Positions 44,337 through 49,522 of a stretch of DNA of 56,004 bases are shown here, one piece after another (the first letter of the stretch is position 1; every line of letters starts with the position of its first letter). The translations under genes and the position numbers were made by a program. This DNA comes from an uncultured archaeon (lineage in GTDB: Archaea; Asgardarchaeota; Thorarchaeia; Thorarchaeales; Thorarchaeaceae). The stretch covers positions 1 to 56,004 of the forward strand of contig CAZPWM010000008.1 in NCBI GenBank assembly GCA_964590575.1. The letters run 5' to 3'. The notes beneath the pieces are model-generated. The model saw only the letters and a list, made by a program, of their open reading frames with translations. It was not told the DNA's origin and made no database searches.

Positions 44337-44822
44337 TCACTGTTTCTTCATGGATAAGGCGTAGAGAATTATAGCAGCAGTACCTGAAGGGCCAATGTCG
44401 ACTCTAGCATCTAGACTACGACATTCCCCAAGATCCATCTCCTTTTTTGAAAATGAGCTGTTGCTTCCAGAGAGCACAATGGCTATTCGTTCTCCTAATT
44501 TTGCCCTTTCAGAAAGCTGGTCCAAATCTAGACGCTCTTTTGTGAGCACTGGAGATGTGATAAGCAATGGTTTTTCGATGTTAAGGACTTCCAAGACATC
44601 CTTGAGATCTGGTAAGACAATGAAGTTCTGTTTCATCCTCATGGCTAAGCGGTTTGCATCAGGGACACCGGCTTGTGCTGCAGAACCCTCCGCTTTGGAA
44701 ACTACAAAATTCGAAAAACCGAGTCCATATACAACTTGAGCTGTTTCAGCCGTTTTTGATGCTGAGTGGACATTATGTAATACCACGTAGATGTTCTTGA
44801 GGAAATCAGACAATGTTTGCAC
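44337..44822 (-). CDS. DUF2122-type SPOUT-fold protein (often annotated RecB-family nuclease)
   Basis: 'VVLHNVHS', 'SKAEGSAAQAGVP', 'VLPDLKD'; overlaps the methyltransferase gene. Confidence 0.75.
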   Translation of the reverse strand: MQTLSDFLKNIYVVLHNVHSASKTAETAQVVYGLGFSNFVVSKAEGSAAQAGVPDANRLAMRMKQNFIVLPDLKDVLEVLNIEKPLLITSPVLTKERLDLDQLSERAKLGERIAIVLSGSNSSFSKKEMDLGECRSLDARVDIGPSGTAAIILYALSMKKQ

Positions 44823-45783
44823 AAACCTCCTGTGCGATTAGCTGAGATACTAAGGGGGGAACACTCTCACCCACTTGATTGTATTGGCTGTCAGAAAAGC
44901 CAGCGAAGATAAAGGAGTCTGGATAACTCATCAATCGCGCATGTTCTCGCACAGTCAATAGTCTATTCTCGTAAGGATGTATATATCGCGAAAGACCGTT
45001 GATTGATGTTGATAGGCGATCAGGGAATAAACGAACCCAGTTTGGGAGACTTCTGTTCTTTGAAACACGGAATCTTCTGACACCCTGACCCCATCGGGTC
45101 TTTGAGATGGCCTTCATTTTATCTTCAGAAACTGGATAGTCTACATGGTTTGGAACATCCATCTCTGGACTGAAAATCTGATGAAGTCCAAGACTAGGAA
45201 GATCACCAATTGCTTCCATGACTGTGGGAGGTGCTTTTCTTGGTGGTTTTAGTTTGATGTTGCTTAAGAAAACACGAAGACGTTTGGAGGGATTACCATG
45301 TTGATGTGCTCGTATCAGATTGGTATGCACATCGTCAATACCAACACGTTCGAACTCTTTCTGGATAATTTCCTTACCCCCAGCGTTTAGGAGTGCAGCT
45401 ACATTCTCAATAACAAAGACTTGTGGTGTGAGGTCGCCTATGATTCGAATAGCATCCAACAACAATTTTGCAGTCCCTTCACCGTAGATTCTCTCAGCTG
45501 CTGACCTTTTGCTATCAGGATTTGCCTTGCTGAACTCCTCACATGGTGGTGATGCAATAATGACATCTGGAGTTTCATTCAGAGTCCCCTCAATTTGATT
45601 AGAGTGAAGACTGTGAATATCAGTCTGCCAAATAATAGAATCAGGAAAGTTGAGTTTGTATGTTTCTAGAGCTGAAGAGTCAATGTCTATGGCGAGATGT
45701 GTGTCATCAATGTGATCTTTGAATCCATAGGAGAAACCTCCTGCGCCACAGAACAAATCAAGAATCTTCATGTACTTCTTCAC
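44806..45783 (-). CDS. DNA (cytosine-5)-methyltransferase
   Basis: Motif I 'DLFCGAGG', motif IV 'SPPC', 'ENV', 'R.R.F', 'LTVREHARL', 'QVGESVPP'. Confidence 0.93.
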   Translation of the reverse strand: MKKYMKILDLFCGAGGFSYGFKDHIDDTHLAIDIDSSALETYKLNFPDSIIWQTDIHSLHSNQIEGTLNETPDVIIASPPCEEFSKANPDSKRSAAERIYGEGTAKLLLDAIRIIGDLTPQVFVIENVAALLNAGGKEIIQKEFERVGIDDVHTNLIRAHQHGNPSKRLRVFLSNIKLKPPRKAPPTVMEAIGDLPSLGLHQIFSPEMDVPNHVDYPVSEDKMKAISKTRWGQGVRRFRVSKNRSLPNWVRLFPDRLSTSINGLSRYIHPYENRLLTVREHARLMSYPDSFIFAGFSDSQYNQVGESVPPLVSQLIAQEVCANIV

Positions 45784-45863: not shown

Positions 45864-47057
45864 TTGTTTTCCACTTCTTTCAGGATATCATCATGTAACT
45901 CATCACTAATTCCATTGCCCTTCCATTGCCCTTCCTTGCCCTTCCATTTGAATCAGATTCGACGAGGAGAAGTAAAGGCAGTACAGATTTTCACTGATCG
46001 ATTTAGAAAATGGTGGGTGACTATTGCTGTTAGGGTCGTGATTGATGACACTCAAGAAGACAAACTTCCTGCTGCGATTCTTGGAATTGACCTTGGTATT
46101 GAGAAGGCTGCTTGCTCGACACTTCTCACTCCTGAGAAGACAAGGGAAACACGCTACTTTGTCCAGAGGGAGAAGGTTGCAGTCATCAAGAAATATGATA
46201 GACTTGTCGCTGATCTTCAGAGTGTGATGAACACTCGGAGGAATAATGGACTATCATATGATAGAGTTGCCAGGAAACTCCGTCGGATGCGTTCCAAAAG
46301 GGAGAATGTGGCAAAGGAGTATGACCGTGTTCTCGTACATCAGCTTCTTGACTACATCTCCAAACTTTCCAAGAAGTACACACTCTATGTAGCCATCGGT
46401 CGCCTGAAAAATATACGAATGCGTGCGAAGAGAGGAAACTACAAGGGGCGGAGGTTCAGAGGGATGATACATTCTTGGGCCTTTGCCCGGATAACCAATA
46501 GTCTGAAACATGGACTCGCTCAGCTTGGTTGTAAGGTTGAAGGAAAGGACACTCGGTTCCGAGCTGTTCCTGAATCTTGGACTTCCATTGTGTGTTGGAA
46601 GTGTGGAAGCAAGGGTAGACGACCCAAACAGAACTATTTCCATTGTCCATCGTGCGGACACAAGACCAATGCTGACAGAAATGGTAGTATCAATATTGCA
46701 GCACGCATGCTCATGCTCACAAAGTCACTGCACTCTGTGAGAGGACTAGGTATGTGGACTAGGGCGGTTGTTCGAGGAACAACCAAACGACGTGCATCAC
46801 CGAAAGCTCGAAAGAAGAAACCTTCTCAAGGGAAGTCCTTACTCTCCAAGAAGGAACAGACATCAGGTTCCGGAGAGTCCGCGGCTGTTCACTTTGTCCA
46901 ATCGGACCTTGTTAGTTTCAGTGATGAACCTAATGAGAGTGATGATGACCCCGCCGTGGTAAGAACTGTGGAAACTCTCGCTGTGGTTGGAAGTGATGCT
47001 CCAGCATCAACACAGGAGAAGGAAGCCAGGTCTTCAGGAGGGATCCCATCCCGATGA
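45864..47057 (+). pseudogene. tnpB: 5'-truncated TnpB-family RNA-guided nuclease with rearranged RuvC site
   Basis: RuvC-I 'LGIDLG', RuvC-II 'VAIGRL' (E replaced by G), 'VPESWTS', CxxC..CxxC, RuvC-III 'NADRNGSINIA'. Only about 45 plausible residues precede RuvC-I. Confidence 0.85.
45910..45948 (+). repeat. Short tandem repeat at the tnpB truncation point
   Basis: TTCCATTGCCC TTCCATTGCCC TTCCTTGCCC TTCCATT. Confidence 0.85.
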
Positions 47058-47165
47058 ACGTTGACAATGCTCTTGCTAATTCTACATTCAATTTGAATGT
47101 GGGAAGTGGTGACACCGGCAGGAGAGGGGCGGAACATAGAAGTTTCTTGTTGTGGTTCACTCACA
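46700..47165 (+). ncRNA. Possible omega/reRNA scaffold and element right end
   Basis: Position at the tnpB 3' end; hairpin ACATTCAA-T-TTGAATGT (47084-47100); TTCAC/TCAC motifs near 47156-47164. Boundaries are inferred only. Confidence 0.35.
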
Positions 47166-47263
47166 TTCATTCTTGAATCGGGTCAGATAACAATGTCGAA
47201 GGAAGACTTCAAAAGTACCCATTATCTACGACGGCTTCAAACTGTCACTGTGAGTGAGAGAGA

Positions 47264-48205
47264 ATGGCGACAGCCTCAGGAAAAGGTAAGGTAATTCTGT
47301 TTGGAGAACACTTCGTTGTCTATGGACTTCCAGCCCTTGTTGCAGGGATAGCCTCAGAAACAACAGCTATGATCACGCGAGTGCGTTCTTTTGGTTGGAA
47401 ACTTGTGGATAATCGCCCAGCCATGCCGGGGTATAAGGAGAAAAAGTATGAAGAACAGAAAGCATCGATAGATAATATGTTGAAACATCTCGATATCGAT
47501 ATCACCAAGACCGGATTTCAGATTGATTTGGGTGGCGATTTGGTATGTGCTTCTGGTATTGGAGCAAGTGCTGCGAGCTGTGTTGCCATTGCTAGAGCCC
47601 TAAGCGATGAATACTCTCTGGCTCTAGATGACGACGAGATTAACCAAACTGCCTACATAGGAGAAACGGGATATCATGGTACTCCTTCAGGGCTTGATAA
47701 CACAGCATCAACATTTGGGGGACTCATTTGGTTTGTACGTGACCTGGGTGGAGGTCCTCCTAAGTTCGAGAGAATGAAGCTCGGGAAATCGGGAAATCTT
47801 GTGATTGCATCAACGGGGTTAACTGCCAGTACAAAAGTAGTTGTAGGGGATGTTAAGAAAAAGAAAGATGCAAACCCAAATTGGTTCGATTTAATCTCCA
47901 GTGAGTTCAACCAACTTGTAAGTGATGCTAGAGATGCTTTGATTGAACTGAATTTCATCAAAGTTGGGAAATTGATGAATAGAAATCATGAGCTGCTACA
48001 ACAATTGACCGTTTCTTGTAAGGAACTCGATAATCTAGTTGATATTGCTCGTGAAAATGGAGCTATTGGAGCTAAGATGACTGGTACTGGCAGGGGAGGA
48101 AATATGATAGCGCTTGCGCCTGATGTACCCACAATGAAAAGGATAGCAGAGGCAGTCAAGAAAGGAGGCGCTGCAGGAGTGTGGACCACATCATTTGGAC
48201 TTTGA
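47264..48205 (+). CDS. mvk: Mevalonate kinase
   Basis: 'GKVILFGEHFVVYG', 'GIGASAA', 'HGTPSGLD', 'GAKMTGTGRGG'. Confidence 0.95.
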   Translation: MATASGKGKVILFGEHFVVYGLPALVAGIASETTAMITRVRSFGWKLVDNRPAMPGYKEKKYEEQKASIDNMLKHLDIDITKTGFQIDLGGDLVCASGIGASAASCVAIARALSDEYSLALDDDEINQTAYIGETGYHGTPSGLDNTASTFGGLIWFVRDLGGGPPKFERMKLGKSGNLVIASTGLTASTKVVVGDVKKKKDANPNWFDLISSEFNQLVSDARDALIELNFIKVGKLMNRNHELLQQLTVSCKELDNLVDIARENGAIGAKMTGTGRGGNMIALAPDVPTMKRIAEAVKKGGAAGVWTTSFGL

Positions 48206-48214
48206 GGTGAAAAT

Positions 48215-49522
48215 ATGATACTTGAAGAATACATCAAAAAACTACAGCAGAATGGAAAAATCACCACTATAAGCAAGGTCATCTCAAAAAACTTAGAGAT
48301 TGCTGGAGTACTAAAGACCCTTGAACCTGAACCTGTATTGTTTGAGAATGTGAAAGAAAGTGAATTCCGAGTCGCAGGCAATTTGTTCTGCAATAAGATG
48401 CAGGTAGCAGATTATTTTGGGATAACACCTGAGCAGATTATCCCAACTCTCACAAATGCAATAGAAAATCGTAGCGAGCCAGAACAGATTGAGAATGCAC
48501 CGTGTCAAGAAGTGATTGAAGAGAAGGTAGACCTTGACCTGTTGCCTATATTGATTCATAACAAAGTTGATGGAGGTCCATACATATCCTCTGGAGTTGT
48601 AGTTGCTGCAGATCCAGAATTTGGACAGAACCTAGATTTTCATAGAGCGATGCAGATTGGTAAAGATAGAATGGTTACTAGAATTGTTAGTGGCCGCGAT
48701 TTTCATAAGTTCTTAGAGCGTAATGGCGAGGTAGATGTTGCATTCTGTGTGGGTAATACACCTGAAGTGCTGATTGCTGCAGCAACCTCAGTTGAAACTG
48801 GAATAAACGAACTAGAGATAGCAAATGCTCTGAGTCCTATTAGACTCACCAAGGCCAAAGATGTTGACTTGATGATACCAGCAGATTGTGAGTTTGTGCT
48901 TGAAGGCAGAGTAGTGCTTGAAGAAAAACACGCGGAAGGACCTTTCATCGATTTGACTGAAACTGTAGATATCGTTCGACAAGAGCCAATATTCGAAGTG
49001 AAGAAGATAACTCATAGAAAGAGTGCTATTTGGCAGGGATTGTTACCAGGACGTTCAGAACACAAGATTCTGATGGGGATGCCTAGAGAACCTACGGTTT
49101 TCAGAAAGATTAAGGAACGTGGAATTAACGTTCTTGATGTCTATATCACTCCAGGCGGAGCAAGCTGGTTACACGTTGCTGTGAAGGTTCAGAAGAAGAA
49201 CGAAGATGATGGTATTCAAGCCCTAGAAGCGGCCTTTGCAGGGCACAAGAGTGCTAAACATATCTGGGTCTATGACGAAGACATCGATATCTACTCAGAT
49301 GAAGAGCGCGAATGGGCACTAGCCACTAGGTTTCAAGCTGATGAAGATCTTCTAATCAAAGACAAAGAGCCTGGATCAAGCCTGGATCCAAGTGCTGAGC
49401 CTGTCACAAAGCTTACGACCAAAATGGGATTTGATTGTACAAAACCATTGGAAACTAAGGGGAAGAGCTATGATAAGGCAGATTTCCCTAAAGTGAATTT
49501 AAGTGAATATCTAGATGAATAG
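48215..49522 (+). CDS. UbiD-family decarboxylase, likely anhydromevalonate phosphate decarboxylase
   Basis: 'DGGPYI', 'EGPF', 'WALATRFQ', 'SSLDPS', 'KMGFDCTKP'; context of mvk and aconitase X. Confidence 0.9.
   Translation: MILEEYIKKLQQNGKITTISKVISKNLEIAGVLKTLEPEPVLFENVKESEFRVAGNLFCNKMQVADYFGITPEQIIPTLTNAIENRSEPEQIENAPCQEVIEEKVDLDLLPILIHNKVDGGPYISSGVVVAADPEFGQNLDFHRAMQIGKDRMVTRIVSGRDFHKFLERNGEVDVAFCVGNTPEVLIAAATSVETGINELEIANALSPIRLTKAKDVDLMIPADCEFVLEGRVVLEEKHAEGPFIDLTETVDIVRQEPIFEVKKITHRKSAIWQGLLPGRSEHKILMGMPREPTVFRKIKERGINVLDVYITPGGASWLHVAVKVQKKNEDDGIQALEAAFAGHKSAKHIWVYDEDIDIYSDEEREWALATRFQADEDLLIKDKEPGSSLDPSAEPVTKLTTKMGFDCTKPLETKGKSYDKADFPKVNLSEYLDE

Follow-up and report, generated by a model that had tools for sequence, protein, structure and literature searches.

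A truncated tnpB gene in a Thorarchaeota contig

The stretch of DNA analysed here (56,004 nucleotides, hereafter the window) covers positions 1 to 56,004 of contig CAZPWM010000008.1 from an uncultured archaeon of the Asgardarchaeota family Thorarchaeaceae (assembly GCA_964590575.1), and it carries on its forward strand an open reading frame (ORF) for a TnpB protein that has lost its 5' part (Table 1). What is retained encodes the last strands of the WED domain, the RuvC-I, RuvC-II and RuvC-III motifs, a zinc finger and a disordered C-terminal tail. That the frame is a TnpB, as an earlier note made from the letters of this DNA had proposed, is borne out by its matches to the NCBIfam guided_TnpB model (NF040570; E-value 8.4e-27, 94.4 bits) and to the Pfam family Cas12f1-like_TNB (PF07282; 3.2e-13, 50.1 bits against a cut-off of 26.3), accompanied by a match to OrfB_IS605 below that model's own cut-off. 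The NF040570 score lies under the 100-bit cut-off because only positions 155-389 of the 389 in the profile are present; for paralogs in the host genome, named here by their contigs, the scores are 113 (C11) and 100.2 bits (C111), which pass, and 99.1 (C64) and 94.8 bits (C2), which fall just under.

When the 561-residue relative P0123 was compared with the window by tblastn, only its residues 190-561 found a match, gapless over 372 residues at 83.9% identity (45939-47054), and its residues 1-189 have no counterpart anywhere in the 56 kb. The paralogs and the structural model of P0123 do have the WED and REC domains, and the DNA 5' of ~45939 shows no relation to tnpB. Since residues 1-189 of the 561-residue form are absent, the window copy is without WED and REC, and its predicted product cannot act as an RNA-guided nuclease, the codons for these domains being lost; the earlier note had likewise held this copy to lack most of REC and WED and to be probably dead. 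Together with the first ~189 codons, the left end of the element and a Cas1-like gene found beside intact relatives are missing.

Table 1. Coordinates of the tnpB copy and of element features in the window and on other contigs (C) of the host genome.
Feature	Position	Strand	Remarks
tnpB, 5'-truncated open frame	45864-47057	+	397 codons, TTG start; homologous to residues 190-561 of 561-aa relatives
Truncation junction	45905-45949	+	~11-nt unit (ttccattgccc-like) ~3.5 times at 45910-45949; tnpB homology from ~45939
RuvC-I Asp D76, GAC in 'GIDLG'	46089-46091	+	Motif D-L-G, without the D-P-G of Fanzors
G179, GGT in 'VAIGRL', at the canonical RuvC-II Glu position	46398-46400	+	End of strand beta-4 (model residue 343)
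Candidate alternative catalytic Glu E237, GAA in 'VPESWTS'	46572-46574	+	6 residues before first CxxC; just after next strand (model residue 401)
C4 zinc finger, CxxC at residues 244-247 and 261-264	46593-46655	+	
RuvC-III Asp D271, GAC in 'NADRNG' (NADxN motif)	46674-46676	+	
Structured RNA, putative omegaRNA/reRNA scaffold	46831-47139	+	Spans last 227 nt of ORF and 82 nt past stop
Right-hand conserved motif GTTGTGGTTCACTCA	47149-47163	+	Contains GTTCACTCA at 47155-47163
Weaker conserved block, probable right end of element	47164-47191	+	Ends GGTCAG at 47186-47191; similarity to other copies stops after block
Element ends			GAGTGAAC.../...GTTCACTC
Large partner gene, back to back with intact tnpB	C2:60779-66418 (+); C64:1736-6517 (-); C141:764-5266 (-)		1500-1879 codons; host genome, outside window
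Gene-less miniature elements	C49:1-342; C79:10278-10732; C3:12322-12797; C130:7078-7457		Roughly 430-480 nt; host genome

The RuvC-II glutamate is relocated throughout the family

All four residues of the RuvC site, D76, G179, E237 and D271, lie where the earlier note had placed them: both aspartates are retained, a glycine stands at the canonical position of the RuvC-II glutamate, and a glutamate follows 58 codons later, ahead of the zinc finger. Such an alternative glutamate six residues before the zinc finger is known as Ealt, with search patterns published for it (PMC10711439; here and below, papers are cited for what the accessible parts of their text state), and both the Fanzors and the 'TnpB2' set of TnpBs are described as lacking the RuvC-II Glu and carrying a conserved Glu ~45 residues on (PMC10530073). 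As solved by cryo-electron microscopy, ApmFz2, the mimivirus Fanzor2 also called ApmFNuc, has the triad D324, E467 and D501 (PMC11832414), and the exchange E467A abolishes cleavage; the archaeal TvTnpB of Thermoplasma volcanium, with the same arrangement, cleaves DNA in dependence on a transposon-associated motif (PMC10530073). The 34 residues from E237 to D271 equal those from E467 to D501.

The host genome (3.4 Mb, 194 contigs, 91% complete) holds the full-length copies that the earlier note had asked for: four paralogs of 578-590 codons with 46-49% identity to the window protein, besides numerous 3' fragments and, where a contig ends, the N-terminal part of a closer copy. All four read '..IG(R/Q)(L/V)KGIR' and 'V(P/S)E(Q/A)WTS', that is, they share the glycine and the relocated glutamate, and the other TnpB-type matches in the genome (10 of 10) are without the Ealt pattern and have 'VNP(R/A)(Y/W)TSQ.C' or '..(Y/F)PSSK.C' instead. 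A profile of the family, run against 1.84 billion cluster representatives, returned 94 proteins at E ≤ 1e-30, 478 at E ≤ 1e-10 and 4295 at E ≤ 0.001. Among the window protein and the 69 listed representatives of at least 330 residues (n=70, 81 shorter ones having been dropped), the RuvC-II column holds Gly in 64, Glu in two, Ser and Asn in one each and a gap in two, and the alternative column holds Glu in 66, Ala in two and a gap in two, so the family-wide loss of conservation that would have spoken against the earlier note's claim of a relocated catalytic Glu did not occur. The two sequences with a canonical Glu are exactly those with Ala at the alternative site. In an alignment of 54 sequences (P0123 numbering), D240, E401, T404 and S405 are invariant and G343 and D435 at least 90% conserved, and the published pattern D{P}G...E-x6-CxxC...CxxC...D is matched by residues 76-271 of the window protein as well as by 119 of 120 and again 119 of 120 close database hits.

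The AlphaFold2 model of P0123 (84% identical to the window protein, 54 aligned sequences) has a mean predicted local distance difference test score (pLDDT) of 81.2, high over residues 4-465 and under 50 for residues 466-526 and 536-561. A strand at 337-344 ends at G343, and E401 directly follows the next one at 396-400, a layout that fits the published description in which the rearranged Glu has left beta-4 for the strand that follows, as in RuvX (PMC10691335). The assignment of G179 to the RuvC-II position is founded on the family alignment and on this strand layout. The raw phmmer alignments suggest R185 at the Glu position, with G179 misaligned; this option was dropped, since in the family alignment the Glu of both canonical-Glu relatives falls on G179.

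By analogy, it is most likely the alternative Glu, six residues ahead of the zinc finger, that completes an Asp-Glu-Asp site in this family. Solved TnpB and Cas12f enzymes use the canonical RuvC-II Glu. The chains of this kind shown in our phmmer alignments, unlike the family, have no Glu at the alternative position. Because the alternative Glu likely completes the triad as in ApmFanzor2 and TvTnpB, the intact family members are probably active RNA-guided DNA endonucleases.

A conserved RNA structure overlaps the 3' end of the gene

The copies in the host genome share DNA past the stop codon at 47057, up to ~47165-47191. When 50 related 3' regions were aligned with the window, conservation from ~46830 onward extends to all three codon positions, and it ends with '...GTTG.GGTTCACTCAC', followed by a weaker 'AGA....GGT.A' block. 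For these 51 sequences RNAalifold gives a consensus of 84 pairs in 16 helices, 45 of the pairs with changes on both sides. In the alignment, 96.6% of the cells are paired, a share that falls to 43.0-48.4% if the partners are shifted by 1-3 columns, and 329 cells show double changes, compared with 37-72 after shifting; none of 500 shuffles reaches any of the observed measures, which are themselves somewhat favoured by the structure having been derived from the alignment on which it is tested. Of the 84 consensus pairs, 83 are retained in the window copy, and an Rfam search of 46500-47400 gave no match at E ≤ 1.

We take this structure as the putative omegaRNA scaffold of the element, also called reRNA. 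Because the protein tail encoded there is predicted to be disordered, the long C-terminal extension of the TnpB is best read as the frame running on through the omegaRNA gene. Within that tail, residues ~308-332 (46786-46860) form a Lys/Arg-rich run, 'KRRASPKARKKKPSQGKSLLSKK', similar to a nuclear localisation signal; since the same DNA is under RNA-structure constraint, this similarity may have arisen as a by-product.

Metatranscriptome contigs of at least 88% likeness, from four runs of two studies, lie almost only on 46617-47135, with exact pieces at 46728-46847, 46818-46900, 46821-46880 and 46950-47051; the body of the ORF is thinly covered, by one run. This gives a weak hint that the RNA region may be expressed, weak because the evidence consists of contigs, because the family has many copies and because conservation is higher in the RNA part than in the ORF. 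With the ORF body the less conserved, relatives at 88% map on the RNA part only, and stretches of the body without cover are no evidence of silence.

The intact element and its range

Wherever a source is named, the best hits of both subfamilies of this TnpB are from Candidatus Thorarchaeota. A scan for loci outside the host genome, with a 12-sequence alignment as the query and one genome per species, returned 79 loci, 63 of which are titled Thorarchaeota, in keeping with the Asgard host proposed in the earlier note, 2 Promethearchaeota, 12 'uncultured archaeon' or 'archaeon', and one each a Desulfobacteraceae and a Woesearchaeota bin. The contigs in these two bins, of 6.7 and 2.5 kb, respectively, are probably mis-binned, and the family is almost confined to Thorarchaeota.

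Intact TnpBs of the family have ~560-590 residues, ~100 of which make up the disordered tail. At 39 of the 60 outside loci with at least 1500 nt of upstream sequence, the N-terminal part of a large gene lies back to back with tnpB on the opposite strand, and in 36 of these 39 the gap between the two genes measures 228-307 nt. Two versions of the large ORF are 26% identical over 888 residues (E-value 6e-68). The C2 and C64 elements of the host genome share a single stretch of 7,662 nt at 74.7% identity, one end of which is the tnpB stop and the other lies ~20 nt from the end of the C2 large ORF and ~850 nt past the stop of the shorter C64 ORF; the C64 large gene stops ~285 codons earlier than the C2 copy. 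A tblastn search of the window with the large-gene proteins gave no hit at E ≤ 1.

On the right, the motif GTTCACTCA is found in 39 of the 50 related 3' regions and occurs only once in the 56 kb of the window. The block that follows it is the probable right end of the element because all similarity to other copies stops there. An inverted left copy, GAGTGAAC(T)CAAC, stands ~45 nt upstream of the tnpB ATG at all 10 subfamily-A loci examined, and the right copy ~100 nt after the tnpB stop at 9 of them. The resulting inverted pair, GAGTGAAC(T)CAAC / GTTGAG(G)TTCACTC (L039-L116), encloses tnpB and the omegaRNA and leaves the Cas1-like gene outside; the window has the right copy only (47149-47162), the left one being lost. 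In six upstream regions the left copy is followed by a short hairpin, mostly CTGACC-loop-GGTCAG, and at the right end GGT(C/T)A(G/T) is met again.

Nine other 3' fragments with the same right end are present in the host genome (C107, C49, C79, C3, C130, C174, C112, C6 and a second site on C11). Their 5' limits lie inside the contig, at differing places, in eight, that of C112 being cut by the contig start, and the C49 and C130 fragments are cut at the 3' end by contig ends. Four of them (C49, C79, C3, C130) are gene-less miniature elements with a common 45-nt left piece, starting TGTA(T/C)GAG, joined straight to the omegaRNA part, and with differing flanks. Being multi-copy, with differing flanks and gene-less derivatives, the family is mobile. 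Directly 3' of the right end, at three outside loci (L115, L086, L116) and in the C174 and C6 flanks of the host genome, tRNA-gene-like sequence with a 'GGTTCGAATCC'-type T-arm was recognised by reading, which suggests, as far as the letters can tell, insertion at or next to tRNA genes.

An intact element consists of a TnpB, a putative omegaRNA scaffold over the 3' end of its gene and, at about two thirds of the loci, a gene for a presumed integrase of 1500-1900 residues. The window copy is very probably a relic of such an element, with the N-terminal ~189 codons, the left end and the Cas1-like gene gone and the omegaRNA scaffold and right end kept. Relic RNAs of this kind, carried in the host genome also by at least eight further 5'-truncated or gene-less copies with the same 3' end and differing flanks, might be kept because full-length TnpB loads them in trans. 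They would then amount to a dispersed guide set, intermediate between a selfish transposon and a CRISPR-like array, with which the repeat-like GTTCACTCA motif would agree; we nevertheless hold such a state to be unlikely.

The neighbours of the relic are of another kind. Upstream, abutting the truncation point on the opposite strand, lie genes for a C5 cytosine DNA methylase (PF00145, 2.9e-46) and a DUF2122 RecB-family nuclease (PF09895, 3.8e-26), at 44337-44822 (-) and 44806-45783 (-) with a 17-nt overlap, the methylase gene being the one next to the relic; the two form a possible restriction-modification-like pair. Directly 3' of the right end, a GHMP-kinase gene (47264-48205, +), probably of the mevalonate kinase type, is followed 9 nt on by a UbiD-family gene (48215-49522, +), an ordinary archaeal isoprenoid-pathway neighbourhood.

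The large partner protein

Searches with Pfam and NCBIfam returned nothing for the large protein beyond weak hits at chance level, and phmmer found no match in the PDB at E ≤ 10. A model of its first 900 residues (pLDDT 82.7, predicted template modelling score 0.81) was searched against 48,161 solved chains. In it, residues 8-260 are similar to the helical catalytic domain of Cas1 (PDB: 8flj, Z 12.8, root-mean-square deviation (rmsd) 3.8 over 176 residues), with further matches to 4n06 (Z 12.1) and to the casposase 6opm (Z 10.6) and an overall range of Z 9.0-12.8; the best 50 structure matches include 11 Cas1 or casposase entries, and no other kind of protein among them matches this region. 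The invariant residues E102, H192 and D202, numbered as in the C64 copy, and a 'PLNALLNY' helix resemble, by eye, the E/H/D and 'P.NALLSFG' of 11 canonical Asgard Cas1 proteins.

Further along the chain, residues 597-876 resemble the cores of RecA, RadA and KaiC (Z 9-11), in agreement with Foldseek (E-values of 1e-4 to 5e-3), and no GK(T/S) was seen at the Walker-A-like place of this domain. On a beta sheet between the two parts stands an invariant D403...E425-x-K427, which we read as a nuclease motif of PD-(D/E)xK-like type; leads from the ESM Atlas were all weak (0.75-0.81) and pointed to the nucleases NucS_C and Mrr_cat and to TPR. From the model, the assignment of the protein to Cas1 is probable, and its gene is presumed to encode an integrase.

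Weighing the interpretation

Taken together, we consider it very likely that the window copy is the relic of a mobile element found nearly only in Thorarchaeota, one with an Ealt TnpB, an omegaRNA and a Cas1-like partner, whose intact members are probably active. Several points weigh against this. The catalytic role of the alternative Glu is argued from position, conservation and analogy, we infer the geometry of the triad, and the pairwise phmmer alignments to solved TnpB and Cas12f chains are ragged and ambiguous around RuvC-II. The Cas1 likeness is structural only, and it concerns a helical region with Z under 13, a range in which a common arrangement of helices is possible; no Cas1 is among the best 50 Foldseek matches of the large protein, the Pfam Cas1 model finds nothing in the host genome at E ≤ 1, and hhalign against the 11 canonical Asgard Cas1 proteins gives a probability of 0.3%. 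Finally, we infer the identity of the family with the published groups Cas1H-Asgard-1/-2 from the available text of PMC10691335, where the stretch before GTTCACTCA is called 'hypervariable', and here the ~14 nt in question are only moderately variable in the 51-sequence alignment.

One could also read the 397-codon frame, or a shorter form from the Met of 'MSPFHLNQ', as a short isoform that is maintained for its own function. Its 372 homologous codons are open, gapless and stop-free at 84% identity to intact relatives; database proteins of 371-374 residues, one of which occurs on 14 contigs, begin at that same Met, the very spot of the break; and two other truncated copies (L079, near 8001; L081, near 2293) break within ~10 codons of the window copy (45905-45940), the upstream DNA of the three being unrelated. 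This shared break point could be a hot spot, a short isoform or an artefact of gene calling. Yet such a protein would be without WED and REC, the domains by which solved TnpBs hold the guide-target duplex, and the left end of the element, with the promoter region, is gone; gene callers may have produced the short database entries by choosing starts within full genes or at the ends of contigs, and the frame may have stayed open through the RNA constraint on its last third and through its young age. We regard a maintained isoform as quite improbable, and a relic of the mobile element as the better account of the frame.

The earlier note had further called the site Fanzor-type, on the ground that the relocated Glu marks eukaryotic Fanzors and their closest prokaryotic relatives, so that an Asgard member would bear on Fanzor origins. 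If the family belonged to the Fanzor lineage or were its closest prokaryotic relative, an Asgard origin of Fanzors would become testable. The Ealt position is indeed exactly shared (E-x6-CxxC, with as many residues to the RuvC-III Asp as in ApmFz2), the genome is that of an Asgard archaeon, and Lys and Arg abound in the disordered C-terminal tail. However, the Fanzor and pro-Fanzor lineage is characterised by DPG in RuvC-I together with Ealt, an IS607 context and cyanobacteria (PMC10711439), and in the family hits with the Ealt pattern (n=266) RuvC-I reads DLG in 262, the window protein among the DLG forms, DFG in two and DMG and DVG in one each; DPG was found in 0 of 291 hits tested (120 + 120 + 51). 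Nor is Ealt confined to one lineage, a rearranged RuvC-II being described from two major clades and from eight large branches, of which the largest has Gly for Glu and several are almost exclusively archaeal (PMC10691335).

Profile and fold comparisons point the same way. Against PDB sequences, the family profile scores highest with AsCas12f (4.5e-36, 128 bits), TnpB 9nzp (1.7e-32) and OsCas12f (1.8e-30), ApmFz2 following in 15th place (9b0l; 2e-14, 56.6 bits) and ISDra2 TnpB at 1.5e-7, and no Fanzor1 chain is among the 43 matches listed at E ≤ 0.01. Foldseek with the P0123 model puts Cas12f first (4e-17), ISFba1 TnpB 13th, ISDra2 TnpB 16th and ApmFz2 26th (3.9e-10), with no Fanzor1 entry among the best 50 matches, and VIA gives Z 18.5 for AsCas12f (rmsd 4.3 over 379 residues), 16.6 for ISDra2 TnpB (4.8 over 348) and 15.4 for ApmFz2 (4.2 over 373). 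The partner gene, too, is Cas1-like and not an IS607 serine recombinase: the latter is not the partner at the window, where the neighbours are the C5 DNA methylase and GHMP kinase genes, or at the three intact host-genome loci, where it is the large Cas1-like gene, the 79 outside loci having been screened for the large gene only. A full-text literature search found no published link between Asgard archaea and Fanzors. What stands of the earlier claim is therefore the Ealt position; with DLG in place of DPG and Cas12f and TnpB nearer than Fanzor2, the Fanzor label does not carry over, and with Ealt known from several TnpB clades the bearing on Fanzor origins is unsupported. Sequence motif, profile scores, predicted fold and partner gene independently weaken it, and we give membership of, or sisterhood to, the Fanzor lineage hardly any credence. 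Were it true, it would mean an archaeal route of RNA-guided nucleases into eukaryotes, with a bearing on eukaryogenesis.

That the loss of the canonical Glu marks instead a catalytically dead family of RNA-guided regulators, like TldR and other exapted TnpBs, would accord with the Gly seen at its place in 64 of 70 sequences and with the inactivated TnpB derivatives already known (PMC10691335), but is very hard to square with the near invariance of both Asp and of the alternative Glu, the mutual exclusion of the Gly/Glu and Glu/Ala states, DNA cleavage by ApmFNuc and TvTnpB with the same arrangement and its abolition by E467A in the former (PMC10530073), and the multiple copies, differing flanks and gene-less derivatives that indicate a mobile element.

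Relation to known systems and significance

With its Cas1-like partner and the GTTCACTCA motif at its 3' end, the family fits two groups of Asgard-linked TnpBs described as associated with a diverged Cas1 (aCas1), a probable transposase, in repeat-flanked loci where GTTCACTCA is conserved downstream of tnpB (Cas1H-Asgard-1/-2; Altae-Tran et al., 2023, PNAS, PMC10691335). As far as the text of that study goes, the two have in common the Asgard host, a neighbour that is probably Cas1-like, the motif, the repeat flanks and the behaviour of a mobile element. The window copy differs from them in its 5' truncation and in lacking the Cas1-like gene and the left end.

More broadly, the family shares with the RuvC-II-rearranged TnpBs, namely the RIIr set (PMC10691335), TnpB2 such as TvTnpB (PMC10530073) and the 'Ealt with D-hydrophobic-G' proteins (PMC10711439), the change of Glu to Gly, the compensating Glu before the zinc finger, NADxN in RuvC-III and the published D{P}G...Ealt pattern. 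It differs from them in its larger protein (~560-590 residues), whose tail of ~100 disordered residues appears to be read through the omegaRNA gene, in a partner that is Cas1-like and not a Y1 or serine TnpA, and in an unusually long scaffold RNA of ~310 paired nt. To Fanzor2 (ApmFz2, PDB: 9B0L) and the cyanobacterial pro-Fanzors it is linked by the position of the alternative Glu, the spacing to the RuvC-III Asp and a detectable likeness of fold (Z 15.4), but it has DLG and not DPG, is without an IS607 serine recombinase at the loci examined and resides in an archaeal and not a cyanobacterial, viral or eukaryotic host, with sequence and fold scores to Fanzor2 below those to Cas12f. The best profile and structure matches are Cas12f (AsCas12f, 8DZJ and 7WJU; OsCas12f, 9NZS) and ISDra2 TnpB (8H1J), which have the same WED-REC-RuvC-zinc finger layout; no CRISPR array was noted beside the window copy or the host-genome paralogs, arrays not having been searched for.

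Publications already describe the relocated Glu, its presence in TnpBs of archaea and the Cas1-linked TnpB elements of Asgard archaea, and the window copy is broken. New for the family are the covariation-backed structure of the putative omegaRNA, the sketch of the partner protein's predicted domains (Cas1-like, PD-(D/E)xK-like and RecA-like) and the DLG-not-DPG test, which sets the family apart from the Fanzor lineage. As it stands, the window copy matters little; the family would matter if its intact members, compact, probably active by analogy and equipped with an unusual, large scaffold RNA, proved useful as editors.

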